64,000 nt of DNA. Source: Myxococcota bacterium (GTDB lineage: Bacteria > Myxococcota_A > UBA796 > CAJQPC01). Both the position numbers and the translations under genes were made by a program. The stretch spans positions 224,001 to 288,000 of the forward strand of contig JAZAMN010000020.1 of NCBI GenBank assembly GCA_036229005.1. The letters run 5' to 3'. The notes under the pieces were generated by a model. It saw only the letters and a list, made by a program, of their open reading frames with translations. It was not told the origin of the DNA and made no database searches. Of this stretch, positions 1-60,496 are shown one piece after another (position 1 is the first letter of the stretch; every line of letters begins with the position of its first letter).

Positions 1-1039
1 CCTCGCAGCTTGTCCCGCCGGAGTTGCCCCCCAGGCGGTAGAGCTCCCGGCTGGTGTCGTGGTCCCAGCGGAAGGCGTCGCTGTCTGTGCTGCAGGTGAT
101 GCGCGGATCGGGCACCCCCTCACAGTCTGTGTCGTCCGGGTGCAGCTTGCACCAGCAGCGGGCGGACTCATCGTCGCTCCAGTCCTGCCGGTCGTCGAAG
201 GCGTAGCCGCTGGCCACAGACTGGTTGCTATAGTGGCCCGCGCCGTCGTTCTCCCACAGAAGGTTGGGCGCGCGTCCGTAGGAGGCCGCGAGCAGCTCCG
301 GGTAGCCGTCCCCGGTCAGATCGCAGGCCAGCGCGGACCAGGCGTTCGAGTGGGCCAGCCCCTGGTTGAGCACGCTCACGCTGCTCCAGCGCTCCGTCTT
401 GACGCCCGTGTCATAGGTCACGTCCACAAAGCTGCCTGAGCCGTCACCCTGATACAGGCGATCCTGCGCGGCGTTGTACTGCCCCACGAACAGGTCCAGG
501 CGCCCGTCCAGATCGTAGTCCGTGAAGGCCGCCCCGTAGGGGCGGTCCCCCGCCAGCACCAGGTCCCCCGCGCTGGTCTCCGAGAACACCCCGCTGCCGT
601 CGTTGAGCAGGATCTGGGAGACCGCCCCGCTCACCTGGGAGTCGTCCACGCCCACGTACAGATCCAGGTCGCCGTCGTTGTCCACGTCGCCGAAGGCCCA
701 GGTGGCCCCGCCCTGGCTCAGGCTACGCAGCCCCGACGACTCGCTGACGTCCAGGAAGCCGCCCTGCTGGTCATTGCGCAGCAGCCACAGCTTGGGGGCG
801 TCCGCGCTGCCCACGGCCATGCCATCCCGCACGGCCAGGTCCGGCCAGCCGTCGTTGTCGATGTCCACGGCCGAGATGCGCACGCCCGTGGCGCCGATCT
901 CCGACAGGCCCCAGGCCTCCGTGGCCTCTACAAAGGCGGTCTCCCCAGACTCCCACGCGCTCCCCGCGTTGCAGATCTCCGGGAGACCCGTCTCCTGGGC
1001 GTCGTCCTTCTTGCAGGCCAGCAGGGCAAGTAGCAGCAT
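1..1039 (-). CDS. FG-GAP/VCBS repeat (CRTAC1/ASPIC-UnbV-like) lipoprotein, 3' end runs off the window
   Basis: Translated by hand: MLLLALLACKKDD..., with repeats AVDIDNDGWPDL, FGDVDNDGDLDLYV, FTDYDLDGRLDLFV and CDLTGDGYPELL. AGGAG SD upstream and an in-frame TGA 3 codons before the ATG. Missing from the ORF track because it is open-ended. Confidence 0.85.
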   Translation of the reverse strand, partial: MLLLALLACKKDDAQETGLPEICNAGSAWESGETAFVEATEAWGLSEIGATGVRISAVDIDNDGWPDLAVRDGMAVGSADAPKLWLLRNDQQGGFLDVSESSGLRSLSQGGATWAFGDVDNDGDLDLYVGVDDSQVSGAVSQILLNDGSGVFSETSAGDLVLAGDRPYGAAFTDYDLDGRLDLFVGQYNAAQDRLYQGDGSGSFVDVTYDTGVKTERWSSVSVLNQGLAHSNAWSALACDLTGDGYPELLAASYGRAPNLLWENDGAGHYSNQSVASGYAFDDRQDWSDDESARCWCKLHPDDTDCEGVPDPRITCSTDSDAFRWDHDTSRELYRLGGNSGGTSCE

Positions 1040-1078
1040 GATCCGTCACTCCTGCCCAGGAGCTTAGCTGACCTGTGT

Positions 1079-2491
1079 TCAGTTGGAGCCGCCATCTGGC
1101 GAAGATCCTGAAAAGTGACCCTTCTGTCGCGCCAGGGCGGTGTCCAGATCCCAGTCTGGATCCTGCTCGCTGTCGTGGCAGCTCGTACAGACCGCCTCGA
1201 TCACACACACCGGGCAGTCCTCGCCGAGCCCCTCGATGCTGCCAGCGCCCGGTGCGTCCAGATGCGGCTGGCCTGGGCCATGGCAGCTCGCACAGGAAAC
1301 CCCGTCCTTCACCTGGTAGCCCTCCAGGCTCTTGGGGGGTGCGCCGGCCTCGACCGCGGTCGCGTGGCAGGAGACACATTGGGTGTCCTGCTGCTGCTTG
1401 CGCTTGAGCAGCTTCATCGCGCCGGCGTGGGGGCCCCTCTCCCAGGCCTGGACGGCGCCCTCGTGGCAGCTCACACAGTCCTGGGCGGCCAGGTTGTGGC
1501 CCTCTGGGAAGGCCAGCAGCGGGCGCTCCGCGCTCCCGTCGTTGAGGGCCTGGATGCGCGCCTGCAGCTCCTTCTCGCTGAGAGTGGCCGCCAGATAGTG
1601 GTCGATGTGGGGCAGGCCCTTCTCCACCGAGAAGTCGATGGAGTGCTTGGCGTCATGGCAGGTCTCACACTGCTCGGAGGCCACCACAGACTCCCCATCG
1701 TGGGGCCCACCGGCGCTGTGACAGGACTCGCAGCCCACGTGCATCAGGTCGCTCGCGTGGTCCCCCAACACAAAGCCGCTGGGCTGCCCCAGGCCGGTGA
1801 CGTGGCAGCTCACGCACTCCGGGTCCGTGGTCTTCTCGGCCTTGTAGATGGTCAGGTAGGCCACCGAGTGGTGGCTGAGCTGCCAGGAGCGGGACTCCTC
1901 CAGGTGGCAGGCGCTGCAGACTGTGTTGCCCTGATACACACCCGGCTCGAAGTGCGCGAACGCGTCCTGGCCCTGGCCCGCGCTGCGGCGCATCTTCATC
2001 AGGGTCGCGGCGCCATCGAACCAGGGGTAGTAGGCGTCCGTGGCGACGACCCCGCCCTGGCCGTCCGGCTCGAAGAGCAGCGCCGTGGGCGTGGACCGGG
2101 CCCCCACAGACCACGCGAAGCCCCGGGGGGTGTCGATCATCAGCGTGAAGGGCACCTGGTAGGTGTCCATGAACCACTGCAGCTCCTTTGGGCTGCTCCC
2201 GGAGTTGGCCACGCCGATGAACGCGACCTGGCCCTCCAGCTCCTTGGACAGCGCCACCACGCCCGGGATCGCGTGCTGGCAGTGGCTGCAGTGGGGGTTG
2301 AAGTACCAGACCAGCGTGGGCCCGGTGACGCGCTCCGCCAGCCACGCCGGCAGCTCCACCGCCTGGTTGGCCGGGGTGAGGAGTTGGGCGGTGTTCGCGG
2401 CAGGCGTGCCCTTGGACCAGGACGCGGGGGCGTCGCCGGTGCCGCCGAGGGCCAGGGGGAGGGTCAGCAGGATGGGCCAGAGGGAGCGCAT
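1079..2491 (-). CDS. Exported thioredoxin/TlpA-like domain fused to an octaheme (2 x c554-like tetraheme) cytochrome c
   Basis: Signal peptide MRSLWPILLTLPLALG, redoxin motif WYFNPHCSHC with STPT cis-Pro loop, and eight CxxCH motifs. TATACT lies 7 nt upstream of the ATG at 2491. Confidence 0.85.
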   Translation of the reverse strand: MRSLWPILLTLPLALGGTGDAPASWSKGTPAANTAQLLTPANQAVELPAWLAERVTGPTLVWYFNPHCSHCQHAIPGVVALSKELEGQVAFIGVANSGSSPKELQWFMDTYQVPFTLMIDTPRGFAWSVGARSTPTALLFEPDGQGGVVATDAYYPWFDGAATLMKMRRSAGQGQDAFAHFEPGVYQGNTVCSACHLEESRSWQLSHHSVAYLTIYKAEKTTDPECVSCHVTGLGQPSGFVLGDHASDLMHVGCESCHSAGGPHDGESVVASEQCETCHDAKHSIDFSVEKGLPHIDHYLAATLSEKELQARIQALNDGSAERPLLAFPEGHNLAAQDCVSCHEGAVQAWERGPHAGAMKLLKRKQQQDTQCVSCHATAVEAGAPPKSLEGYQVKDGVSCASCHGPGQPHLDAPGAGSIEGLGEDCPVCVIEAVCTSCHDSEQDPDWDLDTALARQKGHFSGSSPDGGSN

Positions 2492-2578
2492 GGCGGGGAG
2501 TATAGCCAGTTCACCGCGGCCGTTGAATGCCACCGTCCGGCGCCCGTAAGGAGCGCTCACCCCCAGCGCGGACGGCTC

Positions 2579-4510
2579 GTGTCTCCCCTGCTCCTGCTGG
2601 CCTGCCTGGGCCGGCCCACCCCCCACAGTCCTGAGCCCGCGGCCGCCGTTGCCGTACAGACCGTGCTCCCCGTGTCCGGCCCGGTCCGCTCAGAGGGCGA
2701 GGCGACTGTGTTCGGTTCCCCTGACTGGCGGGTCGTCGCGGTCACCGACGGCGGGGCGATCCGCAGCAGCGAGGTCCGCGGGATGCAGCTCGTCCGCAGC
2801 GATGGGGGGCACACAGACTGGCTCCCCGTCGCCGCCGGGACCTGCCAGCCCACCCAGGCGGCGCGGATCGTGTTCTGTGACCGCCGGGACTACGTGGACC
2901 TGGAGACCGGGCAGGTCCTGGCGAGCCACCCCTGGGCGCCCAACACGCCACAGACCTCAGCCGTGCTCCCCGACGGCTGGATCGCCCACATCGAGGGCTC
3001 GGCGCTGCGGGTACAGAACGCGTTCGGGGGAGGATCCGACACAGTCGAACTCCCGACCCCACCGACCGGCATTGCAGCCCTCCCTGGCGGCAGACTGCAG
3101 GTGAGCGCCGGCGAGGACGGGGGCATCTTCCTGATGCTGGACGGACACCTGGGCCAGGTCTCCCGGGGTCCCGGTCGCGGCGGCGAGCGCTGGGTCACAC
3201 AGTACACCGAGCGCGGCGCTGGCGCGCTGTTCAACGAGGGCGAGGTGCTCTTCCAGGTGGGCAACGCGGGCCGCAGCGCCTTCATCGACCACGTCTACCG
3301 CGTGGGCCAGATGCGGGTGTCCGGAGACAGCACACAGTTCGCCGCCGTGCTGGAGTTCGACCACCCCGAGACCGGCTACGAGCGCCGGGTGCAGTGGTAC
3401 CGGGTGCACCCCTACCACTTCGAGTTCATCGCCGAGCGCCCCCTGGACCGCGGAGATTGGCTCTACCCCACCCCCCACGGAGTGGTCCTGGTGGAGTGGC
3501 TGGACGGCGACCTCCACATCGAGGGTCCCGGCGGCACCCTCGCCGTGCTGGAGGAGCTCCCACAGAGCATGCACCCCCAGGTCAGCGGGGACGGCGCTCT
3601 GTGGCACCTGGGCGAGTACGGCACCACCCTGGACCCCCTGACCTGGCAGGTCTCCGGGCCCCGCCTCGCCAACCCGGGGCGCTCCCTGAGTGTCGTACAG
3701 ACCCGGGGTCCCTGGCGCGTGACCTGGGACGGGGAGACCAACGCGCTGTGGCGGGACGGGGTGTTCGTGCGCGCGCTGGACACCCGCTCTCTGGGGGGCC
3801 GGCCGGGGGGCTTCTCGGCGGACGGTGCCCGGCTGCTGGTGGGCACTCGGGTGGTGGAGACACAGAGCGGGGAGCTTCTGTACGACCTGGGGGACTGGCT
3901 CGAGGACGACGACCCCGAGCTGGCTCTGCACCCGGACGGCGAGACCGTGCTGGTCTTCTCCGAGGGGGCCGACGCAGACCAGATCAGCCGGGTGCGGCTC
4001 TCCGACGGAGAGTCTCTGTGGTCCACCCCCATCCCCCGCCGCAAGGCCAACGTGGTCACCACCCTGGCGCTCAGCGACGACGCACAGACCCTGGCCATCA
4101 GCCGCTGGCAGCGCGACCTGAGCCTGATCGATCTGGAGACCGGCGCGCTACAGTCCACCCACCGGATCGCGGGCATTCAGGAGGTGGCCTGGGGTCCCGC
4201 CGGCGAGCTCGCGCTACAGACCGCCCCCTTCACCGGGGGGACGGGCACCTACGTGCTAGAGAAGGGTCGCGTGCGGCGGGTGGAGGAGCGCACGGCCACC
4301 TACGTGGACTTCGACCCCCAAGGCCGGCTCGTGATGGCCTTCCAGAGGTGGGGCGAGCACCCCGGGAGCATCGAGCGCCTGGACCTGGAGAGCGGTGCGC
4401 TACAGACCATGGCCCTGCCCGTCAGCCTGCAGGGCCTGGAGGCCCACGGGGACCACGTCCTCCTGAGCGCCAGGTGGACCAGCGCGGTGTGGAGCCTGCC
4501 CTGGCCTTGA
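2579..4510 (+). CDS. WD40/YVTN-like beta-propeller lipoprotein
   Basis: GTG start MSPLLLLAC; repeats FSADGARLL, LHPDGETVLV, LSDDAQTLAI, FDPQGRLV. The 5' part of ORF 1115..4510 overlaps the cytochrome gene and is discarded. Confidence 0.7.
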   Translation: MSPLLLLACLGRPTPHSPEPAAAVAVQTVLPVSGPVRSEGEATVFGSPDWRVVAVTDGGAIRSSEVRGMQLVRSDGGHTDWLPVAAGTCQPTQAARIVFCDRRDYVDLETGQVLASHPWAPNTPQTSAVLPDGWIAHIEGSALRVQNAFGGGSDTVELPTPPTGIAALPGGRLQVSAGEDGGIFLMLDGHLGQVSRGPGRGGERWVTQYTERGAGALFNEGEVLFQVGNAGRSAFIDHVYRVGQMRVSGDSTQFAAVLEFDHPETGYERRVQWYRVHPYHFEFIAERPLDRGDWLYPTPHGVVLVEWLDGDLHIEGPGGTLAVLEELPQSMHPQVSGDGALWHLGEYGTTLDPLTWQVSGPRLANPGRSLSVVQTRGPWRVTWDGETNALWRDGVFVRALDTRSLGGRPGGFSADGARLLVGTRVVETQSGELLYDLGDWLEDDDPELALHPDGETVLVFSEGADADQISRVRLSDGESLWSTPIPRRKANVVTTLALSDDAQTLAISRWQRDLSLIDLETGALQSTHRIAGIQEVAWGPAGELALQTAPFTGGTGTYVLEKGRVRRVEERTATYVDFDPQGRLVMAFQRWGEHPGSIERLDLESGALQTMALPVSLQGLEAHGDHVLLSARWTSAVWSLPWP

Positions 4511-4928: not shown

Positions 4929-5609
4929 TCACAGGAGGTCGGACACGCCAGACTGGGTGCGGATGAGCACCCCTTGTGTGGGTGGGGCTGGCAGGTGGGT
5001 CTCCGTCACATAGTCGACCTCCCACAGAAAGACCGCGTCGTCCGCAAGGACCTCTGCCTGCCCGGCGCTGGCGGGGAAGACGCAGGTGTCGATGTCGGAG
5101 GACTCGGGGTCCGTGCGGTGCGAGAGCCGGACCACCAGCAAGCCCTGTTCCGTGGGAGTCCAGCTCACCTTCAGCGAGGCGCCGTGCGGCTGCTCTTCGA
5201 CCTGGACCTGGAGGTCCACCCACGGCGGGACTGTGATGGGTTCCTCCAACTGGAAGGCCGGGATGTCATCCCCTGTGGACCGCACGGTCATGGCGCTGCC
5301 CCCCGGCCAGCCCGACACCGTCGACTCCAGCGGCTCGCCGTCCAGGCTCACCTGCACCTCTCCCGCGGAGTACCAAGGGCCATCTGTGATGGTAGCGTAC
5401 CGCGACGTGCAGTCCCCCGGCTCAAGTACGGGGAGGCTGCCCCGACTCACCCAGTGCGATGCCCGGGTGCTGCGGCCGTCGACGTCTCCTCTTCCGTCCA
5501 GATAGACGACGGCGTACAGTTCCTCGAAGGGGATGGGCTCACCGCTGTCCACGCCTGTGTCGAGGCCGGTGTGCGGGGAGGGGGTGGTGCAGGCGAGGAG
5601 GAGGAGCAT
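4929..5609 (-). CDS. Hypothetical lipoprotein
   Basis: Starts MLLLLAC; protein-like composition. Confidence 0.65.
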   Translation of the reverse strand: MLLLLACTTPSPHTGLDTGVDSGEPIPFEELYAVVYLDGRGDVDGRSTRASHWVSRGSLPVLEPGDCTSRYATITDGPWYSAGEVQVSLDGEPLESTVSGWPGGSAMTVRSTGDDIPAFQLEEPITVPPWVDLQVQVEEQPHGASLKVSWTPTEQGLLVVRLSHRTDPESSDIDTCVFPASAGQAEVLADDAVFLWEVDYVTETHLPAPPTQGVLIRTQSGVSDLL

Positions 5610-5672: not shown

Positions 5673-6572
5673 TCAGAGGAATACACCCGCCAGGACCGTG
5701 CCCTCGATCGCCTGCTCGGAGACGATGATGCCCTCGCGGTCCACGCGCAGCAGGCCGCGGCCGCGGCTGAGCAGGACGAGCTCCTGGCTGCCGGGGTCCC
5801 AGCCGCAGGCGACGATGTCGCCCAGGATGTCCGTGGGGGCCAGCCAAGGGTCTGTGTCACCTCCGGCGAGCGCCTCGATGCTGCGGGCGTTCCCGCCCAC
5901 ATCACAGACCATGGGCTGGCCGCCCTGGCCCAGGAAGAGGTCGGTGGTGCGGGTGCGGCTGGTGTCGTAGCGCTGGAGCACGGTCCAGCCGTCGCTGGTG
6001 CCCTGGAGGAGGCGGAGGCTGCCGTCTTCGTAGTCGACCACATACAGACCCTGGGCGCCGTCGTGGTGGACGTGCAGCAGCTCGCCGAAGCTGACGCCGG
6101 AGATCTGGGTGACCACGCCGTTGTTGTTGCGGTACAGGTTGGTCTGTGTTCCGACAATGAGCTGGCCGTTGACCCGGGTGACGTCCTGAGGGCCCAACGG
6201 GAGCTGCCCGAGCTGGACGCCCGCGCCCAGGTCGTAGATCGCCCCGTCCTCCAGCACGCCGGCCAGGTGGCTGTCGTCCTGGAGGGCGAACGCGAGCTCG
6301 ATCTCCTGCTTGCCCAGCAGAGTGGGCGCGCCGCCGACGGGCAGCTCCGTGAGCATGCGGGTGCTCAGGTCGCTGGACAAGGACACGGCCCAGCCGCCCA
6401 GCTCAGGGTCCCCCACCGGGGGGTTTGTGTCCTGGGGGTCGCTGTCCTGGGGGTCGGTGTCCGGCAGGTGGGTGTCGGCCAGACAGTCCTCGCCTGCGGC
6501 GCAGTCGATTCCGGCAGGCTGGAAGAGCACACAGCCTGAGAGGTGGGCCAGGACGGCGGGCAGCAGAGACAT
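5673..6572 (-). CDS. Hypothetical lipoprotein with D/P-rich linker and probable beta-propeller
   Basis: MSLLPAVLAHLSGC lipobox; DTDPQDSDPQDT linker. Confidence 0.65.
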   Translation of the reverse strand: MSLLPAVLAHLSGCVLFQPAGIDCAAGEDCLADTHLPDTDPQDSDPQDTNPPVGDPELGGWAVSLSSDLSTRMLTELPVGGAPTLLGKQEIELAFALQDDSHLAGVLEDGAIYDLGAGVQLGQLPLGPQDVTRVNGQLIVGTQTNLYRNNNGVVTQISGVSFGELLHVHHDGAQGLYVVDYEDGSLRLLQGTSDGWTVLQRYDTSRTRTTDLFLGQGGQPMVCDVGGNARSIEALAGGDTDPWLAPTDILGDIVACGWDPGSQELVLLSRGRGLLRVDREGIIVSEQAIEGTVLAGVFL

Positions 6573-10999: not shown

Positions 11000-12163
11000 A
11001 TGCTGCCGCTGTTCCTCTTGTTTTCCTGCTCCAACCCCGCACTCCAGGAGGAGTACGAGGCCCGGAAGGCCGCCGCGCTGAGTGCGCCGGGTGAGGTGCC
11101 CAAGGGCTGGGAGGCGGAGGGCGCGCTGCGCATGTGTGGGCCGGCGATGGAGCAGATGCTGGGGACGGCGATCGCGCGGGAGTCCAAGGCGGCCAAGCCC
11201 ATGGACGTCAAGGGGATGGGGACCATCAAGCCGGTGCTGGAGCTCAAGAGCTTCAAGCTCATCGAGCCGGCGTGCAAGGAGTGCGTGGGGACAAAGGGGC
11301 GTCTGGAGGGCAACGCCGAGGTGAAGGTCGCCGGGATCAAGACAAAGATTCCCTTCAAGGCCAACTTTGAGATGGACTTGCGCTTCTCGTCGGAGCAGCG
11401 GGGGGAGCGGCGGCACATCGTGCTGACACCGCAGGAGGTGCGCAAGCTCAAGGTGAAGTTCGAGGGCGCGGCGCCCATGAACCTGTCGGGCGTGGTCGAG
11501 AAGTACGGCGCGCAGGTGCTGGCGCAGATCGACCCGGTGGACCTGGGCGACCTGGGCGGGCCGGAGCTGCACCTGCGGGACGCGCGGGTGGTCGGAGACG
11601 GCGGCTGCATGCGGATCGAGCTGCTCACGGACGCGCCGGAGCCCGCCGCGGTGGGCAAGTGGCCGAAGGCCCCGGAGGAGGGCTGGCAGGCGGTGGTGAG
11701 CGAAGAGGCGCTGCTGGCCATCGCGCGCCGGGAGGCCTTCGCGATGGGCGACGTCGCCGATGGGATGGGGATCTACGCGGAGCCGACCTCTCTGGACGTG
11801 GACGGCGATGCCTTCACCCTGGGGCTTCGGGTGTGGCGGCTCGGTGGCCCTGACTGGTGGCGGGACTACACCCTCAAGGGCTCGTTGGCGGTCACGGGTC
11901 AGGAGCTGGTGCTGGCCGCAGACGAGGTCATCGAGGGCCCGAAGTCCGAGGGCGCTGGCGTGGCCGACCCGCTGGCCCTGGTCGGCGAGGCGTACCTGAT
12001 GCGCATCCTCCAGGACTCGGCCCAGGGCGCGCTGCCGGCGGCCGACAGCTTCTCGATGGGGAGCTCCCAGTGGTCTGTGGTCACGGAGGACGCCCGGGGT
12101 GTGGGTGACAGCCTGGTGATCAGTGGGAAGATCCAGATCGGAAAGAGCAAGAAGGCCCGGTGA
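11000..12163 (+). CDS. Hypothetical lipoprotein
   Basis: MLPLFLLFSC start with upstream GGAG; long ORF with typical codon use. Confidence 0.7.
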   Translation: MLPLFLLFSCSNPALQEEYEARKAAALSAPGEVPKGWEAEGALRMCGPAMEQMLGTAIARESKAAKPMDVKGMGTIKPVLELKSFKLIEPACKECVGTKGRLEGNAEVKVAGIKTKIPFKANFEMDLRFSSEQRGERRHIVLTPQEVRKLKVKFEGAAPMNLSGVVEKYGAQVLAQIDPVDLGDLGGPELHLRDARVVGDGGCMRIELLTDAPEPAAVGKWPKAPEEGWQAVVSEEALLAIARREAFAMGDVADGMGIYAEPTSLDVDGDAFTLGLRVWRLGGPDWWRDYTLKGSLAVTGQELVLAADEVIEGPKSEGAGVADPLALVGEAYLMRILQDSAQGALPAADSFSMGSSQWSVVTEDARGVGDSLVISGKIQIGKSKKAR

Positions 12164-12195: not shown

Positions 12196-14388
12196 ATGTT
12201 GCTGCTGCTGTCCTCCTTCTCCCTGGCCGCCCTCCCCGACTGCGAGGACTTCGACGCGGACTTCGGCCCGCCGCCCGAGGTGGATGAGGCCTGCGTGTCC
12301 GAGCCGGCCATCGGGACCTTCGACCCCCAGGTCAAGTGGCAGTGGGGCGAGAATCTGTCGGCGTCCGGCTACAACGAGGCCATCACCACACCGATGGTCG
12401 CCAACCTGACGGACGACAACGGCGACGGCGTCATCGACGAGGCCGACACCCCCGACGTGGTGTTCGTGTCCGAGACCTACTACGGCTGGGGCCAGGCCGG
12501 CGTGCTGATGGGCCTGTCCGGGAGCGACGGCTCCGAGCTGTTCGCGTGGCCCGACATCGGCGGGCACGGCTTCGTGGGGGGCAGCGGCGTGGCCATCGCG
12601 GACATCGACGCGGATGGCAGCCCGGACGTGTGCGTGGCGGGCACCACCTACGCGGTGATCTGCGCCGAAGTGGACGGCAGCCTCAAGTGGGCGGCGGGGT
12701 CTTCGGCCTCCGGCTCCTGGGGGGCCGCGGCCTACCCCGTGATCGGGGACATGGACGGCGACGGCTTCGGTGAGGTCGCCGTGGGCGCCGACATCTTCGA
12801 CTACGACGGCACCGCGCTCGGTCAGGGCGCGAGCTGGGACGGCAACCTGGGCGTGGGGCGCATGTCCCTGATGCTGGACGTGGACGGCGACAACCAGCTT
12901 GAGCTTGTGGCCGGCGGCGCAGCCTACGAGCGCGACGGCACGCTGGTCTGGGCCGGCAGCTACGACGGCTACACCGGCGCGGGGGACCTGGACGGGGACG
13001 GCGTGCCCGAGGTCGCCATCACCGGCGACGGCTACGTGACCGCAATCTCCACCCTGGACGGCAGCACGATCTGGCGCACCGCCATCCCCGGCGGCGGGCG
13101 CGGCGGGGCCCCGAACATCGCGGACTTCGACGGCGACGGGGAGGCCGAGATCGGTGTCGCGGGCGCCACCTACTACAGCGTGGTCGAGTCCGACGGCGTG
13201 GTGCTCTGGTCCACGCCCAGCGTCGACGCGTCCTCGAACGTGACCGGCAGCTCGGTGTTCGACTTCGAAGGGGACGGCCAGGCCGAGGTCGTCTACGCCG
13301 ACGAATACAGCCTCTACGTGCTCGCCGGCCCCACCGGCGAGGTGCTGATGGACGAGACCCGCCACGACTCGGCCACCTGGTTCGAGTACCCGGTGATCGC
13401 CGACCTGGACGGCGACGGCTCCAGCGAGATCCTGGTCAGCTCCTGCCGCTACCGCACCAACGGGGACTGGGTGGGGGTCACCGCCATCGAGTCCGCCAGC
13501 GGCTCCTGGATGGCCAGCCGCCCCATCTGGAACCAGCACGCCTACCACATCACAAACATCAACGATGACGGCAGCTTGCCCCTCCCTGCCGACGCCACGC
13601 TGGACCTGCACAACAGCTTCCGGGCGGGGGGACTCGTGGACGGCCCCTCCGACTGGCTGATCGACCTCTCGGTGGACCAGCAGGCCTGCGACTCCGGGTG
13701 CGGGCTGGTGGAGGTCAACTTTGCCGTCACCAACACGGGCATGCGCGACGCCACCGACGTTCAGATCACCCTGTTCCGCTACGAAGAGGGCATGCCCGTG
13801 GACCTGGCCAGCGACATCGTGGGCAGCGTGGCCAGCGGCGGGCGGAGCGTCCTCGATGTGGGCCTGGGGCGCGCAGACTGGGGCGACGGCGACCTGTGGG
13901 CGGTGGTCACCCACGACGCCTCCTTCCGCGAGTGCGACGAAGACAACAACCTGCTCAACCTGGGCCCCTTCCCCGGGGCGGACGCGGACCAGGACGGCGA
14001 CGGCGCTCTGCCCGTGGAGTGCGGCGGCGACGACTGCGACGACAGCGACCCCTGGGTGGGGCCCGACGCGCCCGAGATCCCCTACGACGGCATCGACAAC
14101 GACTGCGATGAGGGGACAGCGGATGACGACCTGGACGGAGACAGCTACCCCACCGCCCAGGATTGTGATGACCAGGACCCCGACGTGAACCCCGGCGCAG
14201 ACGAGGTCATCGGGGACGGCATCGACAACGACTGCGACGGCAGCGAGGAGCCCGACTGCGACGACTGCATCCTGGAGGACACCGTGCAGGGCGGCGGCGG
14301 CTGCGGCTGCGCGAGCACCCCCAGCGGAGGGGCCTTCGGGTGGATAGGCCTGCTGGTGGTCGGCGTGCTGATCCGCCGGCGGCGCTGA
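12196..14388 (+). CDS. Cell-surface FG-GAP repeat protein with CARDB-like domain, MopE-like Cys/Asp repeats and MYXO-CTERM tail
   Basis: Many DxDGDG repeats; DGIDNDCD motifs; C-terminus GGGGCGCAS...GWIGLLVVGVLIRRRR. Confidence 0.88.
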   Translation: MLLLLSSFSLAALPDCEDFDADFGPPPEVDEACVSEPAIGTFDPQVKWQWGENLSASGYNEAITTPMVANLTDDNGDGVIDEADTPDVVFVSETYYGWGQAGVLMGLSGSDGSELFAWPDIGGHGFVGGSGVAIADIDADGSPDVCVAGTTYAVICAEVDGSLKWAAGSSASGSWGAAAYPVIGDMDGDGFGEVAVGADIFDYDGTALGQGASWDGNLGVGRMSLMLDVDGDNQLELVAGGAAYERDGTLVWAGSYDGYTGAGDLDGDGVPEVAITGDGYVTAISTLDGSTIWRTAIPGGGRGGAPNIADFDGDGEAEIGVAGATYYSVVESDGVVLWSTPSVDASSNVTGSSVFDFEGDGQAEVVYADEYSLYVLAGPTGEVLMDETRHDSATWFEYPVIADLDGDGSSEILVSSCRYRTNGDWVGVTAIESASGSWMASRPIWNQHAYHITNINDDGSLPLPADATLDLHNSFRAGGLVDGPSDWLIDLSVDQQACDSGCGLVEVNFAVTNTGMRDATDVQITLFRYEEGMPVDLASDIVGSVASGGRSVLDVGLGRADWGDGDLWAVVTHDASFRECDEDNNLLNLGPFPGADADQDGDGALPVECGGDDCDDSDPWVGPDAPEIPYDGIDNDCDEGTADDDLDGDSYPTAQDCDDQDPDVNPGADEVIGDGIDNDCDGSEEPDCDDCILEDTVQGGGGCGCASTPSGGAFGWIGLLVVGVLIRRRR

Positions 14389-18065: not shown

Positions 18066-20102
18066 ATGCTGCTTGTGCTCTCCAGCCTGCTCGCCTGCCC
18101 CAAGGAGACCGCGGTCGAGGCCGCGGCCCCCGTCACCCCGGAGCTGCCCTCCTACGCCACCACCGTGCTGGCCGACATGGACCCCAGCGCGGACGCCTGC
18201 TCGGACTTCTACCAGTTCGCCTGCGGCGGCTGGATGGCCCGCACCGAGCTGCCCGCGGACAAGCCCTCCTGGACCCGCTCCTTCTCGGTGATCGCCGAGT
18301 CCAACCGGGCCTTCCTCAAGGAGAAGCTGGAGGCCGCCGCGGCCGACCCCTCCGCCGGGGACGAGAACTGGGCCAAGCTGGGCGCCGCCTACGGGGCCTG
18401 CATGGACGATGAGGCCCGCAACGCCGCCGGCGTGGGCGCTCTGGACGCCATGCACACCCAGGTGATGGCGCTCAAGGGCACCGCGGACCTGCCCGCCCTG
18501 ATCGGCCAGATGAACCTGATCGGCGCCGACCCCTTCTACGGGAACTACATCGAGGGCGACTACAAGGACCCCACCCTGACCATCCTGCACATGGGCCAGG
18601 GCGGCCTGGGCCTGCCCGACCGCGACTACTACCTCAAGGACGACAGCGCCGAGCTGCTGGCTTCCTACGAGGCGACCATCGCGAGCCTGCTGGAGCAGGC
18701 GGGCTGGGCCGACGCCGAGACCGCTCCCGAGATGGCCAAGGCCGTCGTCGCCTTCGAGACCGAGCTGGCCAAGGTGCACGTGCCCCGCGCCGAGCTGCGC
18801 GACCCCACCACGACCTACCACCGCATCGAGCGCGAAGGCCTGGTCGAGCAGGTGGGCGTGATCGACTGGGAGGCCACCTTCACCGCGATGGGCGGCCCCG
18901 ACATCACCACCATCAACGTCGAGCGCCCCGAGGTGCTGGCCGCGACCTTCAAGCTGGTCGACGAGACCGACGCCGCCACCCTGCAGGCCTACCTGAGCTG
19001 GCGCCTGCTGAGCAGCATGGGCTCCAACCTGCCCCCCAGCATGTACGGCACCCTCTTTGACTTCTACGGCAAGCAGGTGCAGGGCCAGGCCGAGCCCGAG
19101 GCGAGCTGGAAGCGCTGCGTGCGCTACACCGACGGCGCGCTGGGCGAGGCCCTGGGCCAGTTCTTCGTGGCCGAGCGCTTCTCCGGCGACTCCAAGCCCA
19201 AGGCCGAGGAGATGATCGCCAGCATCCAGGACAACTTCGAGGAGCGCCTCCCCGAGTTGGACTGGATGGACGAGGACACCCGCGGCGCCGCCGTGGAGAA
19301 GAAGAACACCCTGGTCAACCAGATCGGCTACCCGGATACGTGGAAGGACTACAGCGAGCTGGCCGTGTCCCAGGACCACCTGGCCAACGTGCTGGCCAGC
19401 CACCACTTCGAGACCGCCGAGGCCGTCGCCCGCATCGGCAACCCCACCGACCCCAAGCGCTGGCTGATGAGCCCGCCCACGGTCAACGCCTACTACCACC
19501 CGCTCTACAACCAGATGGTGTTCCCGGCGGGCATCCTGCAGCCCCCCTTCTACGACGCCGAGTTCCCCATGGCGATGAACTACGGGGCCATCGGCATGGT
19601 CATGGGCCACGAGCTGACCCACGGCTTTGACGACCAGGGCCGCAAGTTCGACCCCCAAGGCCGCATGAACGAGTGGTGGACGCCCCAGGCCAGCGAGAAC
19701 TTCGAGGGCCGCGCCGACTGCGTGGTCGAGCAGTTCAACGGCTTCTCCGTGGGCGAGGACCTGAGCGTCAACGGCGAGCTCACCCTGGGCGAGAACATCG
19801 CGGACCTGGGCGGCCTCAAGGTCTCCTTCGCCGCGTTCCAGGACTACAAGGCCGCAAACGAGCTGCCCGCGGAGCCGATCCCCGGCATCACCCAGGACCA
19901 GCTCTTCTTCCTGGCCTACGCCCAGGCCTGGTGCACCAAGGCCAGCCCCGAGTACGAGAAGATGCAGGTGCTGAGCGATCCCCACAGCCCCGCGCGCTAC
20001 CGTATCCAGGGCCCCCTGGCCAACCTGCCGGAGTTCCACGAGGCCTTCGGCTGCGAGGCCGGCACCCCGATGCACCCCGAGAACACCTGCGAGGTCTGGT
20101 AG
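18066..20102 (+). CDS. M13 family (neprilysin/PepO-like) metallopeptidase, lipoprotein
   Basis: MLLVLSSLLAC; DFYQFACGGW; VNAYY; HELTHGFD; GENIADLGG; DPHSP. Confidence 0.93.
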   Translation: MLLVLSSLLACPKETAVEAAAPVTPELPSYATTVLADMDPSADACSDFYQFACGGWMARTELPADKPSWTRSFSVIAESNRAFLKEKLEAAAADPSAGDENWAKLGAAYGACMDDEARNAAGVGALDAMHTQVMALKGTADLPALIGQMNLIGADPFYGNYIEGDYKDPTLTILHMGQGGLGLPDRDYYLKDDSAELLASYEATIASLLEQAGWADAETAPEMAKAVVAFETELAKVHVPRAELRDPTTTYHRIEREGLVEQVGVIDWEATFTAMGGPDITTINVERPEVLAATFKLVDETDAATLQAYLSWRLLSSMGSNLPPSMYGTLFDFYGKQVQGQAEPEASWKRCVRYTDGALGEALGQFFVAERFSGDSKPKAEEMIASIQDNFEERLPELDWMDEDTRGAAVEKKNTLVNQIGYPDTWKDYSELAVSQDHLANVLASHHFETAEAVARIGNPTDPKRWLMSPPTVNAYYHPLYNQMVFPAGILQPPFYDAEFPMAMNYGAIGMVMGHELTHGFDDQGRKFDPQGRMNEWWTPQASENFEGRADCVVEQFNGFSVGEDLSVNGELTLGENIADLGGLKVSFAAFQDYKAANELPAEPIPGITQDQLFFLAYAQAWCTKASPEYEKMQVLSDPHSPARYRIQGPLANLPEFHEAFGCEAGTPMHPENTCEVW

Positions 20103-21398: not shown

Positions 21399-22595
21399 AT
21401 GATCCCCTTCCTCCTCCTGTTCTCTCTGGCCTGCAAGGACGGCGGCGGCGTCGATGACTCCCAGGTCACGGGGACGGACGACACCCAGAGCGGCGACGAC
21501 ACGGGCGCCGAGTGTCTGGAGGCGAGCGCCCCCAGCGGGCTCACCCTGGTCGGCGAGGCCACGCCCCTGACCGCCCCGACCCTGACCTGGACCGAGCCGG
21601 TGGAGGGCTGCGCGCAGACCGTGGAGATCCAGCTCGCGCTGGGCGATGGGAGCGATCCGGCGGCCTGGCTGGACTGGACCGCCGTGACCCAGCCCTGGGA
21701 CGGCAGCCTGAGCACCCCGCTGCCCTTGGAGGGTGAGGTCGTGGCCTCGCTGCGGGCGGTGGACGCCCTGGGGAACCAGTCCGAGGCCGTCAGCGCCAGC
21801 TTCACCATGTGGAGCCCCAGCGCGCTGGAGGGGATGGTGGCCTGGTACGACTTCGCGGACACGGACACCCTACTGGGCACGGGCTGCTCGGCCCCCGCCG
21901 CCGAGGGCGAGGTGATCCACTGCGTGGACGACAAGTCCGGCAACGGCAACGACCTGAGCGACGCCGACGCGGGCGAGGGCTACCCCGACTTTGACGGGCC
22001 CCTGCGCACGACGCTGAACGGGCGGGCGGCCGCGGACTTCCACGGCCAGCGCCTGCTGTGGGTGCCGCACAACGACTCGATCGGCTTCCAGGCCCCGGGC
22101 ATGGTGGCGGTCTGGGTGGACGCGCCCAGCCGCGTGAACGACTACACGGGCGAGTACCCCCTGAACAAGGAGGGCGCCTACGAGTTCGCCTACCGCGAGG
22201 GGCAGCTCAAGGCGGCCATCGAGACCGAGGCCAGCGGGCGCTGGGAGTGGGGCACCGTGGACCCGGGCGCGAGCCCGGAGCTGCAGCTCAACGCCTTTGT
22301 CTACGACGGGACCAACTGGGTGTTCCGCCGGAACGCAGAGCCGCTGGGGCTGATGTCGCCGGCGGGCAACCAGACCGGGCTAACCAACGCCGGCTACTAC
22401 GAGCTCCACTACGGCGGGCAGACCTTTGTGATCACCGAGACCCCGCTGGTGATCGGCGGGCGGCCCCTGGGCAACAGGGTGAGCTACGAGGCCGTGCAGG
22501 GCGAGCTGCTGCTCTTTGACCAGGTCCCCACCGGCACCGACCTGAACCTGCTGGAGCGCCAGCTCATGGAGAAGTGGCAGATCGCCACGGAGTAG
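21399..22595 (+). CDS. Lipoprotein with Ig/FN3-like and LamG/ConA-like domains
   Basis: MIPFLLLFSLAC; WYDFAD...DKSGNGNDL...GELLLFD...L.EKW pattern typical of LamG-like modules. Confidence 0.7.
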   Translation: MIPFLLLFSLACKDGGGVDDSQVTGTDDTQSGDDTGAECLEASAPSGLTLVGEATPLTAPTLTWTEPVEGCAQTVEIQLALGDGSDPAAWLDWTAVTQPWDGSLSTPLPLEGEVVASLRAVDALGNQSEAVSASFTMWSPSALEGMVAWYDFADTDTLLGTGCSAPAAEGEVIHCVDDKSGNGNDLSDADAGEGYPDFDGPLRTTLNGRAAADFHGQRLLWVPHNDSIGFQAPGMVAVWVDAPSRVNDYTGEYPLNKEGAYEFAYREGQLKAAIETEASGRWEWGTVDPGASPELQLNAFVYDGTNWVFRRNAEPLGLMSPAGNQTGLTNAGYYELHYGGQTFVITETPLVIGGRPLGNRVSYEAVQGELLLFDQVPTGTDLNLLERQLMEKWQIATE

Positions 22596-33077: not shown

Positions 33078-34132
33078 CGCGCCTCCCAGTAGCGCAGGCC
33101 GTCCACCAGGCGCTGCGCGGTGTAGGGGCTGGTCGCGCTGTCCTCGCAGTAGCCCATCAGGTCCGGGGTCTCCGGGGGCAGCCAGACCTGGGCGATGGGG
33201 TCCCAGGTCGCGATGCCCACAGCCCCCTCCTCGTCCGGGAAGCCCGGATCCACGCTGTCCGGACCGCACGAGGGCGTGTGCATCGCCCCCAGCAGGTGCC
33301 CCAGCTCGTGCGCCATGGTCTTGTGGTTGCGCGCGCTGCCCTCCCAGGGGCCCACCGCCGCCCGCAGCTCCGGCTGGAAGTCCATGCCGCCGGCCAGGCC
33401 CGCCCCATCGCTGGCCGAATAGAGCCCGTAGTAGAGCACCGAGGGCGCCGCCCCCTCCGCCTGGTGCAGCGCGCCCAGGGCGTAGACCTCCTCGGCCAGG
33501 TCCTCGCTGTCGCGCACGCCGCCGTCCCGCTCCATGCCGTCTGGGTGCACACTCAGCAGCACCTGCGACGTGGGGATGAAGCGCAGCAGAGCAGCCTCGA
33601 GCTCCGCGAGCGCCGCGTCATCCAGCTCCGGCGCGACGTCGTTGAAGCGCAGGGGCACCAGCACGAGCTCCAGCGGCGGGACCGCCTGCGCGTCCAGGGA
33701 GAGGAAGCGGTCTGCGGGCCGCCTCGCGCTGCCGGCCTCACCGCGGGACACCCCGTCCACCTCGAACACCGAGACCCGGATGGCCGCCGTCGAGGTCACG
33801 CTGTCCGCGTCCAGCTCCAGGGTCAGCTCCGCCCCCTCGGCGCCCACGTCCAGCGCCTGGGCGTCCAGCTCCACGGGCCATCCGTCCGCATCCAGGCCCT
33901 CGGCCACCACGCGCACCCGCCGCGGCTCGAAGCCCGACTCCGGCGCCAGGGTCACCCGCAGGGCCGCCCCGCGATCCGCGATGACGGTGGTCTGCCGCGC
34001 CTGGACCGGGGCCCCATCGAGCACCAGGGGCACGGTGGCGGTCTGGCCCAGCAGCACCTCGTCGATGGAGAGATCTGCGGCCAGTGGCGGAGGGGATCCG
34101 CAGGCCAGGAGGTGCAGCAGCCATGGCGTCAT
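33074..34132 (-). CDS. Zinc metallopeptidase lipoprotein (M66/reprolysin-like)
   Basis: AHELGHLLGAMH (HExxHxxGxxH); DLMGYC Met-turn. Confidence 0.8.
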   Translation of the reverse strand: MTPWLLHLLACGSPPPLAADLSIDEVLLGQTATVPLVLDGAPVQARQTTVIADRGAALRVTLAPESGFEPRRVRVVAEGLDADGWPVELDAQALDVGAEGAELTLELDADSVTSTAAIRVSVFEVDGVSRGEAGSARRPADRFLSLDAQAVPPLELVLVPLRFNDVAPELDDAALAELEAALLRFIPTSQVLLSVHPDGMERDGGVRDSEDLAEEVYALGALHQAEGAAPSVLYYGLYSASDGAGLAGGMDFQPELRAAVGPWEGSARNHKTMAHELGHLLGAMHTPSCGPDSVDPGFPDEEGAVGIATWDPIAQVWLPPETPDLMGYCEDSATSPYTAQRLVDGLRYWEAR

Positions 34133-34914
34133 CAGAAGCTCCCCGCTCGGGCCCCCGCCACCTTGCCATCCTTGAAGACCAAGGTTCCAGGCGCATACTC
34201 CGCGCCCGCGACGCTCAAGGTGTCGTAGCTGACGACCTGCGTGAGCGCGCCGGAGCTGTCCAGGAAGACGTCGACCCCGGCGGGCAGGGAGACGCCCCCG
34301 ACGCGGCTCTCGCGGCCCAACATGCAGCGGGCCAGCGAGCCGTCGCGATGCAGGGTGGCGGCGTTCTCGCAGGGGATCCCGCCGACGCCCAGGTGCTGGC
34401 GCGGGGGCTCGATGTCAAAGAAGGTGAGCTGGCGGATCGAGGCGCTGCCGGCCTCCAGGTCGAACCAGAAGCCCACCTGGGCGCCGCGGCGCACCAGCAG
34501 CTCCCCAAAGCGGTGGTCGCGGCCCAGCTTGCACACCGCGAAGCCGCCGCCGTCCACCATCAGGCGCCCGCTGCAGGGCACGCCGGTGACCGGGACCGTG
34601 CGGGTGAGCGCGACGCTGAGGCCGCTGGGGTCGCCGCCGTCCGGGGCGTACAGGACCGGCTCCCCGTGGCTGTCTGGGGGGAGGGAGGCCAACAGCTCGG
34701 GCGCCACACCCAGGTCCACCCCGCCAAAGGGATCCCCCTCGGGCTTCTCTGCACTGGCTGGCTCCGGCGAGGTCACCGGCAGGGGCTCGGGCTCCGGATC
34801 CTGGGGCACCACCGGCGTCCAGTCCCCCGGGGTGGCCTCGGAGGTCGGCGAGACCGCGCGCTCCGCCTGGGGCTCTGCGGGCTCCTGCAAACACGCGATC
34901 AAGAGAAGCAACAT
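34132..34914 (-). CDS. Hypothetical lipoprotein
   Basis: MLLLLIAC; Pro-rich linker; TAGGCT 6 nt upstream. Confidence 0.65.
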   Translation of the reverse strand: MLLLLIACLQEPAEPQAERAVSPTSEATPGDWTPVVPQDPEPEPLPVTSPEPASAEKPEGDPFGGVDLGVAPELLASLPPDSHGEPVLYAPDGGDPSGLSVALTRTVPVTGVPCSGRLMVDGGGFAVCKLGRDHRFGELLVRRGAQVGFWFDLEAGSASIRQLTFFDIEPPRQHLGVGGIPCENAATLHRDGSLARCMLGRESRVGGVSLPAGVDVFLDSSGALTQVVSYDTLSVAGAEYAPGTLVFKDGKVAGARAGSF

Positions 34915-34966
34915 GGGGCCAGCCTACCGGCTATCGGGACTCCCCGCCCTCTCTGGAGCCGCCTTC

Positions 34967-41855: not shown

Positions 41856-42353
41856 ATGTTCTCCCTCCTCTGCGCCCTTGCCCTCGGCGAGGACACCGTG
41901 GCCCTCGGCGAGGACACCGTCCCGCCAACCCCCGACACCGGCGTCCGCATCTTCCTGGGCGCCGGCAGCGCCCAGAACCAAGGCAGCGTCGGCGAGGCCC
42001 TGGAGCTCGGCGCCCACCGCGTCACCTACAAGAACCGCGTGGGCTCTCAGCTTGGCGGCAGCCTGTCCTTCTACCGGGCCGGAGCGCTGACCCTGCCGGT
42101 CCTCAACGCGGACGCGATGGTGCGCTGGCGGCCCTCGGAGACCTGGCGGGTGCAGCCCTACGCGAGCGCCGGGATCGGCCTCTCGATGCTCCTGATCCTC
42201 CCCTTCCCCGCCGCCACGATCGGCCTGGGCCTGGACATCCCCGTGGGCAACCTGCACCTGGACGGCGCGCTGCGCGGCCGCTGGATCGCCGACCCCTACG
42301 GCCAGACCGACGGCGTGAGCGTCACCACGCTGGAGCTGGGTCTGCGGGTCTGA
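41856..42353 (+). CDS. Small outer-membrane beta-barrel-like protein
   Basis: AAGGAG SD; short signal peptide; QPYASAGIG; ends ELGLRV; ALGEDTV duplicated. Confidence 0.6.
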   Translation: MFSLLCALALGEDTVALGEDTVPPTPDTGVRIFLGAGSAQNQGSVGEALELGAHRVTYKNRVGSQLGGSLSFYRAGALTLPVLNADAMVRWRPSETWRVQPYASAGIGLSMLLILPFPAATIGLGLDIPVGNLHLDGALRGRWIADPYGQTDGVSVTTLELGLRV

Positions 42354-46410: not shown

Positions 46411-46440
46411 CCGAAAACCTCACTCTGCGGGTCGCTGCCC

Positions 46441-50140: not shown

Positions 50141-50683
50141 CTACTCGAAGCGCACCCGACAGATCTCCGCGCCCTGGGAGCTGAACTCGACGTGGTCCAT
50201 GGCGCCGGCCAGCTCGACGTCCACCTTCTTGTCCAGGCCGTTGCTCCAAGAGGCCACCTGCTGCCCATTCAGGCTGGAGCTCGCGTGGCTGCACTCCCCC
50301 GAGCAGCCCGTGTTCACGCTCAGGATCGCCTTGGTACACCCCAGGTCGGCCGGGGGGACCAGCACCAGCTTGGCCGGCGACAGGATGGGGCAGTTGCCGG
50401 AAGGATCGCGCAGCACATAGGGCGTGAACTGGGTGCGCTCCCAGCGGCCCTCGACGCCGTCGACCTTGAAGTCCTTGTCGATCGGGACCTTGGAGAGGTC
50501 GATGTCGATGGCGCACGCAGATCCTGGGTCCACCGCCTGGGGCTTGCCCTCCTGACCCACCGCCTCCTGGACCTCTGCGCCCGCGAGCGAGGTCATCGAG
50601 ACGCGGGGCTTGGGGGCGACCGGCTCCGGCGCTGGCGGGGCGGGGGGCTCGGTGGTGCAGGCGAGGACAAAGGCGATGAGCAT
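50141..50683 (-). CDS. Hypothetical Cys-containing lipoprotein
   Basis: MLIAFVLAC; TAGACT 6 nt upstream. Confidence 0.65.
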   Translation of the reverse strand: MLIAFVLACTTEPPAPPAPEPVAPKPRVSMTSLAGAEVQEAVGQEGKPQAVDPGSACAIDIDLSKVPIDKDFKVDGVEGRWERTQFTPYVLRDPSGNCPILSPAKLVLVPPADLGCTKAILSVNTGCSGECSHASSSLNGQQVASWSNGLDKKVDVELAGAMDHVEFSSQGAEICRVRFE

Positions 50684-50729
50684 GCGCCCAGTCTACCCCG
50701 GTGGTTAGCCCGCCACTGGAGGCCTTCTC

Positions 50730-59169: not shown

Positions 59170-59182
59170 GCGGGCGGGTTCC

Positions 59183-59363: not shown

Positions 59364-59379
59364 GCCCTCCCACTTCCGC

Positions 59380-59666
59380 GGCTACGCCCTCCCAATGAGC
59401 GCCCCCCTCAGGCTACGCCCTCCCAACGAGCGCTTCCCCGAGGCTACGGCCCACCAGTGAGCGATTCACTCACCGATCTGGCCCCGAAGACCCCGTTTCT
59501 TCCCGAAAACCCACCAGAATCGGCCATTCAGCCCCGATTCGGTCGCCAAATCGCTCACCGAGCACCCGTAGCCTCAGCAAGGCGCTCACTCAGTGGGCGT
59601 AGCCACCCCACCCCGCTCACTCAGACCGCGTAGCCACCCCACCCCGCGCACTCAGCAGGCGTAGCC
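59380..59666. repeat. 287-bp element, copy 2 (core inverted relative to copy 1)
   Basis: GGCTAC at 59380, 59411, 59442; GTAGCC at 59568, 59599, 59630, 59661. Confidence 0.85.
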
Positions 59667-59680
59667 CCCAGCTCCCGGCC

Positions 59681-60496
59681 TCAAAAGCACCAATCGTTCT
59701 CGCGCCCCGGGTTCCCCACGTCCCCGTTCGTGAGCCAGCCGTACTGCTCGCACCAGTCGCTGCCGTCGTCGTTGCCGGAGACCGTCGCGTCGGCGGGGTC
59801 GATGCCCAGGGAGTTGCCCACCGCCGAGAAGCCCTCCTCGTAGCTCATCTTGTCCAGCACCTTGCCGCTGGGGCTGAGCAGGATGACCTCGTCTTCGGTG
59901 TTCGAGAGCCCAAAGCCCCCGCCAAAGGTCTGGTACAGGAAGGTTCCCTGGCAGGTCACGCCGCCGTTGTCCCAGGTCGAGTCGTTCGCGCAGATCACCA
60001 GGTAGTCGTCCGGTCCGACCACCAGGCTGCCCTTGGACACCGCGTCGATCACGTAGTCATCGACCCCCTCGTCCGCGAGACGGTGCCCCGACACGTCCAG
60101 CCAGTCCGTCGAGCTGTTGTAGAGCTCCACCCACTCGCCGTCCCCGTCGTCCGCGCCGTCCGGGTTGACCAGCAGCTCGTTGATCACCAGGTCGCCCTTG
60201 GCCGGGTCCCGCGGGTTGCTCTCCGAGTCGCCCGGATCCGAGTCCGCGTCCGAGTCGCTGTCCGAGTCCGCGTCGCTGTCGGCGTCCGAGTCCGCGTCGC
60301 TGTCGGCATCCGAATCCGCATCCGAGTCGGCGTCCGTGTCCGAGTCCGCGTCGGCGTCCGTGTCCGCGTCCGACTCCCCGGTGTCCTCGCTGCCCTCGCC
60401 TTGCCCAGGCCCCCAGCTCGGCAGCAGCCCGTCATCCCCCTCGTCGGAGAACAGCCCGGTCTCGATGCACGCCAGGGACAGAACGAGGAGGATCAT
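59681..60496 (-). CDS. Lamin-tail-domain lipoprotein with Asp-Ser/Ala/Thr dipeptide repeat linker
   Basis: MILLVLSLAC; DADSD repeats; LVINELLVNP...GEWVELYN; LSNTEDEV; GNPG. Confidence 0.85.
   Translation of the reverse strand: MILLVLSLACIETGLFSDEGDDGLLPSWGPGQGEGSEDTGESDADTDADADSDTDADSDADSDADSDADSDADSDADSDSDSDADSDPGDSESNPRDPAKGDLVINELLVNPDGADDGDGEWVELYNSSTDWLDVSGHRLADEGVDDYVIDAVSKGSLVVGPDDYLVICANDSTWDNGGVTCQGTFLYQTFGGGFGLSNTEDEVILLSPSGKVLDKMSYEEGFSAVGNSLGIDPADATVSGNDDGSDWCEQYGWLTNGDVGNPGRENDWCF

Follow-up and report, generated by a model that had tools for sequence, protein, structure and literature searches.

Uncharged predicted lipoprotein signals of seven to eleven residues in a Myxococcota genome and its order

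Introduction

The signal peptides of bacteria, as described in textbooks, carry a basic n-region and are no shorter than 15–16 residues. In a 64,000-nucleotide stretch from an uncultured Myxococcota bacterium (assembly GCA_036229005.1, contig JAZAMN010000020.1, positions 224,001 to 288,000 of the forward strand; hereafter the window), 12 genes begin with a short hydrophobic leader that is free of Lys and Arg and ends in a lipobox-like Cys, which raises the question of whether such minimal leaders are genuine, how widely they are used, and how they might be exported. An earlier note, written from the letters of the window, had described them as a window-wide trait. The trait proved to be real, and it extends to the genome and the order rather than being specific to the window: hundreds of genes in this genome and in many of its relatives start with uncharged signals of 7–11 residues, roughly half that minimum. 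Protein export in these cells thus appears less strictly constrained than in model bacteria. The trait is restricted to a single Myxococcota-like order and is distributed patchily within it.

Genome-wide occurrence of short uncharged leaders

The assembly comprises 6.4 Mb with approximately 70% GC and is 94% complete, and a purpose-made codon model yielded 5,373 genes (90% coding). By taking the most upstream ATG, GTG or TTG after the upstream stop in every frame, the occurrence of lipobox leaders was assessed independently of start prediction, using a filter that required a hydrophobic run followed by Ala, Gly or Ser and a Cys at residue 6–14, with no charge in the six residues before the Cys. 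Such leaders were found in 435 of 5,326 coding frames compared with 100 of 24,847 non-coding frames. The Cys counts at positions 6 to 14 of the coding frames were 3, 6, 83, 96, 102, 63, 43, 16 and 23, with a peak at 8–10 that was absent from the non-coding frames and from the control residues Thr, His, Tyr, Trp and Asn; Gln showed a small bump at 10–14. Since the filter let positions 6 and 7 through, the floor at Cys 8 is real; nine cases lay below it, four of them of genuine appearance.

Lys or Arg occurred in 9 of the 343 leaders with Cys at 9–14 (for Cys at 8 its absence follows from the filter itself), compared with 41% of 2,354 genes having either residue within positions 2–6. When starts were picked by a Shine–Dalgarno (SD) motif or a −10 box, 1,022 lipobox genes were obtained, 633 of which were short and uncharged, corresponding to approximately 12% of the 5,373 genes; judging from the non-coding and His controls, 20–40 of these are likely to be false positives. 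A horizontally acquired island was rejected as the source, as short signals are present on 70 of 74 contigs and their GC content at third codon positions equals the genome average.

The short signals are Leu-dense, with 50% Leu and a Kyte–Doolittle hydropathy of 2.82 compared with 29% and 2.29 in the long ones. Leu usually occupies position −2. As regards retention of the initiator Met, 82 of the 83 signals with Cys at 8 carry a large second residue, a preference that is inseparable from the need for hydrophobic residues. The net charge of the mature residues +2 to +21 is −2.6. Short leaders are also seen among signals resembling the signal peptidase I (SPI) class: with cleavage sites inferred by motif, 121 uncharged candidates have a median length of 14 residues (mode 11) and 59 candidates with Lys or Arg a median of 22, in agreement with the earlier remark that Sec-type signals are equally short.

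Reliability of the short starts

If the real starts lay upstream, a normal n-region could be supplied by residues that the short reading overlooks. An in-frame CTG or ATH (ATA, ATC or ATT) that would add Lys or Arg does exist upstream in 77 of 396 leaders with Cys at position 12 or below, and an in-frame upstream GTG or TTG exists for six of the 12 window leaders (2579, 11000, 18066, 21399, 33077 and 60496). However, an in-frame stop lies within 12 codons of the Cys in 92 of the 396 and within 14 codons in 133, so that no start codon of any kind could lengthen those leaders, and misassignment is excluded for this stop-capped set barring stop read-through. No CTG or ATH alternative was present within 25 codons in 254 of 396. 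Moreover, the signals around the short starts favor the short reading. SD motifs precede 56% of 387 short-signal genes (Cys at 8–12) compared with 11% of 4,788 internal ATGs, stop–start overlaps were counted in the same 387 genes (56 ATGA and 18 TGATG), and a TAnnnT box 6–7 nt upstream of the start, without an SD motif, was found in 51 of 387 (13%) compared with 0% at internal ATGs. The short starts are thus almost certainly genuine, and misassignment is barely credible as a general explanation.

All 12 window N-termini given in the earlier note were recovered at their coordinates, the sole correction being that the start at 2579 is GTG rather than ATG. Their Cys lies at residue 7–14, and none has Lys or Arg before it. 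The start is the first ATG, GTG or TTG after an in-frame stop in six of them (1039, 5609, 6572, 34132, 34914 and 50683); the least secure is 2579. The stop, couplings and −10-like boxes on which that note had based several starts were all present, and its three short Sec-type leaders were located at 12196, 31002 and 41856 on the plus strand. The relevant features of the window are as follows.

1013..1039, minus strand: nine-residue leader including the Cys (MLLLALLAC) of an FG-GAP repeat protein extending beyond the window; an in-frame stop 3 codons upstream fixes the start
2579..4510, plus strand: gene with GTG start and Cys at 9, weak beta-propeller match; start not forced
4929..5609, minus strand: gene with Cys at 7 (MLLLLAC), no Pfam match; among the nine forced cases genome-wide below position 8
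5673..6572, minus strand: gene with Cys at 14, no Pfam match; start forced
11000..12163, plus strand: gene with Cys at 10, no Pfam match; GGAG upstream
12196..14388, plus strand: FG-GAP and MopE-motif protein (Pfam) with a short uncharged leader of Sec/SPI type, judged from the leader sequence
18066..20102, plus strand: M13 metallopeptidase, predicted lipoprotein with Cys at 11; orthologues retain the lipobox, some having an Arg n-region and others none
21399..22595, plus strand: gene with Cys at 12; a stop 5 codons upstream limits the leader to at most 16 residues, without Lys or Arg
31002..32363, plus strand: gene with a short uncharged leader of Sec/SPI type (leader sequence), no Pfam match
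32379..33077, minus strand: gene with Cys at 8 whose start codon overlaps the upstream stop (ATGA)
33074..34132, minus strand: gene with Cys at 11, weak M12 metallopeptidase match; start forced, TGATG coupling
34132..34914, minus strand: gene with Cys at 8; start forced
34921..34926, minus strand: −10-like box TAGGCT, 6 nt before the ATG, whose TAG is an in-frame stop; leaderless mRNA likely
41856..42353, plus strand: gene with a short uncharged leader of Sec/SPI type (leader sequence)
50141..50683, minus strand: gene with Cys at 9, no Pfam family; start forced
50690..50695, minus strand: −10-like box TAGACT, 6 nt before the ATG
59681..60496, minus strand: lamin-tail-domain protein with Cys at 10; GGAG upstream

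The GGAG motif stands 5–8 nt upstream of the starts at 11000, 18066, 21399 and 60496. In Pfam, three of the 12 lipobox proteins could be named (FG-GAP at 1039, M13 peptidase at 18066 and lamin-tail at 60496), two had weak matches and seven had none; a protein search of an atlas with the 50683 product returned nothing above 0.83 and no informative match.

With regard to the −10-like boxes, 162 of 2,354 genes have a G-rich TAGnnT box at a distance of exactly 6 nt from the start codon, which suggests that leaderless mRNAs are frequent; the box was also seen in family f12 outside the order. The −10 box is enriched with short signals (51 of 387 compared with 2 of 150), and the two correlate across the order (rho 0.46, where kin are not independent and the counts overlap). 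Leaderless translation was nevertheless rejected as the cause of the trait: 87% of the short-signal genes have no box, and family f12 has the box without short signals. Separately, several orthologues of the M13 gene have a TAG or TAA box followed by two nucleotides and G, 6–7 nt before the start and without SD motif, possibly a second promoter class.

Evidence for export and lipidation

After subtraction of the lipobox Cys, the Cys count was even in 218 and odd in 63 proteins of the short set, compared with 207 even and 238 odd in controls whose N-terminus is not hydrophobic (p = 6e-17); 49 short-set proteins have no further Cys, and proteins with more than 8 were dropped. Lipoproteins with Lys or Arg in the signal gave 131 even and 44 odd. 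This parity fits disulphide-bonded cargo in which the lipobox Cys is unpaired. In addition, CxxCH occurs in 17 of 396 short-signal proteins, a further transmembrane (TM) segment in only 6 of 396, and uncharged leaders are present on 12 of 21 OmpA-domain proteins (hand count). The M13 gene had a match in 73 other genomes, and the starts were read by eye in 40 of them. A lipobox Cys was retained in 38 of these 40, mostly with one Arg and 13–21 residues, and uncharged leaders of at most 12 residues were seen in seven (G001, G005, G012, G088, G111, G114 and G115, from families f1, f3 and f7). On these indirect grounds, the short-leader proteins are very likely exported. Their lipidation by Lgt and cleavage by LspA are predicted with good, somewhat lower, confidence. 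A twin-arginine (Tat) signal of the signal peptidase II (SPII) class was rejected, as an Arg pair is impossible in the short set and lipoproteins with an Arg pair form a separate group with long signals.

The proteins might also be exported while the short leader is retained as an uncleaved anchor, or the Cys might be acylated by an enzyme other than Lgt. LLAC, the commonest box, deviates from the strict lipobox at −2, and a leader of seven residues is too short for a helix that crosses the bilayer. On the other hand, position −1 is Ala, Gly or Ser (the three residues the filter let through), with Ala in 346 of 435; LLAC is also the commonest box in the long Lys/Arg-bearing signals; and orthologues with canonical signals bear the same box. 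Such a fate is accordingly regarded as very unlikely.

BamD was uninformative as a core-lipoprotein test, because most of its representatives in this class carry a Sec/SPI signal. The best match to the BamD family (PF13525; G000:C7:59665-60249) has a signal of this type without lipobox in most genomes of the class, and a lipobox is present in BamD of four named Myxococcota and two f3 genomes, so that BamD may be non-lipidated in this class.

Distribution across the order and phylum

The range of the trait was scanned with a DNA pattern encoding Met, an uncharged residue, a hydrophobic run and Ala/Gly-Cys with the Cys at 8–11, using the reversed pattern as a control. In this genome, 155 matches were obtained compared with 2 for the control. 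Of the 110 genomes of the order, 62 had more than 5 excess matches per Mb and 21 had at most 2, whereas 0 of 26 genomes from the rest of the class exceeded 5; 0 of 243 other genomes of the phylum exceeded about 8 (hand calculation), and 25 named genomes had 2–43 pattern matches. Sampled DNA gave the same picture: high-trait genomes have Met, a Leu run and Cys, low-trait members of the order have Met, Arg, a hydrophobic stretch and Cys, mostly over 13–20 residues, and signals in other orders range from 15 to more than 30. Among pooled loci of named Myxococcota, Lys or Arg was present in 69 of 74 lipobox leaders.

In a quick Ffh tree, the order formed one clade in which high-trait genomes occurred in both halves, among low-trait ones, which suggests repeated shortening or repeated reversal of signals within the order. 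The rest of the class grouped with Myxococcaceae, Anaeromyxobacter, Polyangiaceae and Kofleriaceae in this unrooted tree, and the lineage is, by this placement, Myxococcota-like.

Export machinery and a possible mechanism

SecY, SecA, SecG, SecDF, YidC, Ffh, LepB, Lnt, LolA, four Lgt-family proteins, two LspA proteins and two deformylases are encoded in the genome, in a search that left out SecE, FtsY and SecB; for Lnt, YidC, SecG, SecDF, LepB and LolA, presence is what was established. The earlier note had proposed that a modified export pathway accepts the minimal signals. In partial agreement with this, substitutions that run through the order were found in SecY and SecA, one of them in the SecY pore ring, although they are common to members of the order with Arg-bearing signals, and LspA, operon Lgt and Ffh showed no trait-linked change.

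The SecY comparison (E. coli numbering throughout) covered 26 of 30 genomes, 16 from the order and 10 outgroups; the other four comprised three without a match and one that was split. All 16 order members carry Ala or Ser at position 187, where 9 of 10 outgroups have Ile, and further substitutions of the order are L164M, T168S/A, M169C, F192T and E110Q. Five of the nine order-diagnostic columns fall at 164–192. At S282, a named prlA position, Ala stands in 5 of the 16 order members and in 1 of 10 outgroups. I187 belongs to the isoleucine ring of the pore (PMC2171872), and pore-ring substitutions give prl phenotypes that let defective signals through (PMC3164448). SecA has seven order-diagnostic columns, including N369S, E431Q, V514K and Y784R at otherwise conserved sites. 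The acidic residues of SecA by the signal groove, which we take to be 289–294 in E. coli, were rejected as the altered site, because this region belongs to an insertion in the E. coli protein that neither the order nor the outgroup has.

In LspA, no column separated the order from the outgroup among 39 sequences caught by a motif filter (not all paralogues), and the catalytic motifs are intact. No trait-linked change was found in operon Lgt among 12 aligned sequences, which did not include three paralogues of this genome, and its motifs are those of the Myxococcota outgroups; nor was any change tied to the trait found in Ffh, including the M-domain, by alignment and quick tree. As a separate observation, this group and the Myxococcota outgroups do not have the exact HGGL motif of E. 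coli in their operon Lgt; GGLV-x-Y/H-GG stands in its place, and GRxGC replaces GRxGN.

These features are consistent with a mechanism in which signals consisting of Met, 3–7 mostly Leu residues and the lipobox would be sent down the ordinary Sec/Lgt/LspA/Lnt route. A helix of seven residues cannot cross a bilayer, and such a signal, too short to span the membrane, would have no task beyond opening the lateral gate and delivering the Cys to Lgt at the periplasmic side. The Leu run at the extreme N-terminus would be caught co-translationally, with a slight preference for the signal recognition particle (SRP) as the most likely factor, and formyl-Met could stay uncharged; very hydrophobic signals are routed to SRP (PMC5963308), and SRP binding prevents deformylation (PMC5454389). 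The neutral formyl-Met could then lie within the bilayer, and orientation might be set by the acidic mature start instead of basic residues. Because Lgt does not engage or need the N-terminal region and acts close to the periplasmic side (PMC4728403), and synthetic lipobox peptides are cleaved by LspA (PMC8689077), targeting or gating is probably what limits the process. Short signals would be permitted by a SecY gate that has loosened throughout the order, through replacement of Ile187 by Ala or Ser with partner changes in TM4 and TM5, and several families might then have shortened their signals independently.

The chances that ordinary Sec, Lgt, LspA and Lnt enzymes together with a relaxed Sec gate handle these Leu-dense signals are judged to be about even. 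Some relaxation of the Sec machinery is somewhat favored, and a contribution of SecY 187 itself is conceivable while falling short of probable. Several observations weigh against this proposal. First, with regard to the signals, the strict lipobox [LV][ASTVI][GAS]C fits 100 of 641 short compared with 144 of 381 long signals; the mature start is not more acidic by way of compensation (−2.6 compared with −2.9 in canonical lipoproteins, p = 0.2); and absence of charge is reportedly offset by a longer, not a shorter, hydrophobic stretch (Hikita and Mizushima 1992, title only). Second, two Pal-like proteins, LolA and BamD retain Lys/Arg signals here (G000:C2:59263, C11:212931 and C70:38304 for the Pal-like proteins and LolA), which may mean that shortening has spared the core envelope proteins. 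Third, with regard to SecY, the cluster of diagnostic columns at 164–192 was spotted post hoc; Ala or Ser at 187 also occurs in one outgroup and in 20 of 144 diverse SecY representatives, with Thr in 9 more (6 of 150 were unparsed); five low-trait order members share the change and yet use Arg-bearing signals of 13–20 residues; no column of SecY, SecA or Ffh cleanly divides high- from low-trait genomes; and the prlA positions G69, I191, I278 and I408 (named in PMC2171872) are unchanged in the SecYs of the order.

Alternatively, the change may lie in the signals alone, in that a dense Leu run and a lipobox suffice for any Sec, Lgt and LspA, the lineage has drifted towards minimal signals, and the SecY and SecA substitutions are incidental lineage markers. 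That the SecY change does not follow the trait within the order and recurs in other bacteria, that LspA, Lgt and Ffh resemble the outgroup versions, and that the same M13 gene has short or long signals in sister genomes, with the short ones more hydrophobic, would all accord with this. Short signals should then be common elsewhere, however, whereas in the scan none of the 26 genomes from the rest of the class exceeded 5 excess matches per Mb and none of the 243 other genomes of the phylum exceeded about 8, and the minimum signal length in E. coli is 15–16 residues (PMC5963308). This alternative is considered unlikely, though it retains a real share of the probability.

A dedicated component for short signals, such as an Lgt or LspA paralogue, an altered SecA, YidC or another factor, would agree with the numbers of Lgt-family, LspA and LepB-family genes (at least three of the latter), with the order-wide SecA changes, and with the sharp floor at Cys 8, which suggests a binding site of fixed size. 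On the other hand, expansion of Lgt and LspA paralogues was rejected, as outgroups have 2–5 Lgt and 1–2 LspA and the high-trait genome G098 has one LspA, and the LspA alignment does not split order from outgroup. A component of this kind is improbable.

Neighboring genes of the window

Several other genes of the window were noted. On the minus strand, a thioredoxin-like and multihaem cytochrome c fusion of exported type with a normal Arg signal lies at 1079–2488, a GrpE-domain protein with an N-terminal membrane segment at 14446–15060, a MATCAP-domain (tyrosine carboxypeptidase-like) protein at 22599–23675, and an XPB/Rad25-like helicase adjoining a Helicase_C_3/WYL protein at 44170–48123. On the plus strand, an AAA_21 ATPase is followed by a small gene without a name at 39224–41172, possibly a defence or toxin–antitoxin pair.

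Implications

It may be suggested, tentatively and against the balance of probability, that the translocon of the whole order is permissive by nature (prl-like) and that more than one tenth of the proteome is exported by means of seven-residue, possibly formyl-capped, non-spanning signals. If so, the n-region and a membrane-spanning h-region would be dispensable for Sec export and lipoprotein maturation, and the SecY change, should it prove to be what permits this, would represent a natural signal-suppressor translocon useful in export engineering. Approximately 600 natural genes per genome without an n-region or standard length, with a hard floor at seven residues, offer a natural gauge of how small a signal can be, together with a ready-made panel for separating the contributions of charge, length and translocon gating.

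Pattern predictors of lipoproteins that demand Lys or Arg miss these proteins, gene callers may place the starts too far upstream, and the envelope proteome of the order is in consequence probably mis-annotated. The earlier expectation that standard predictors may miss them was supported by a G+LPP-type pattern, which itself requires Lys or Arg and matched 0 of 641; it was the G+LPPv3 pattern from PMC13068155, with the middle term set as 6–20 uncharged residues. The SPII training set of SignalP 6 was built on PROSITE and UniProt (PMC9287161). No publication on this short-signal trait was found in the open-licence literature.

Comparison with known systems

The leaders resemble Sec/SPII signals (E. 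coli Lpp type; PROSITE PS51257) in having an N-terminal hydrophobic run that ends in a small residue and Cys, an acidic, Pro-rich tether after the Cys, encoded Lgt, LspA, Lnt and LolA, and orthologues with canonical signals. They differ in the absence of a basic n-region, in having 7–11 residues before the Cys compared with the 16–26 residues of Sec/SPII lipoprotein signals (PMC8689077), in the usual Leu at −2, and in their share of all genes. Similarly, the uncharged Sec/SPI candidates share with that class an h-region followed by an A-x-A motif and cargo of OmpA-domain and other exported type, but they are much shorter than the Lys/Arg-bearing candidates beside them.

The signals of this organism would be classed as defective, and the exchange of the pore-ring Ile at SecY 187 for a small residue recalls the prlA alleles of E. 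coli. Unlike those alleles, it is natural and order-wide, lies outside the named prlA positions, is also present in bacteria without known short signals, and is known here from sequence. Finally, engineered poly-Leu signals without positive charge (Hikita and Mizushima 1992, title only) likewise appear to put hydrophobicity in the place of charge; those signals reportedly use a longer hydrophobic stretch, whereas here the whole signal is shorter.

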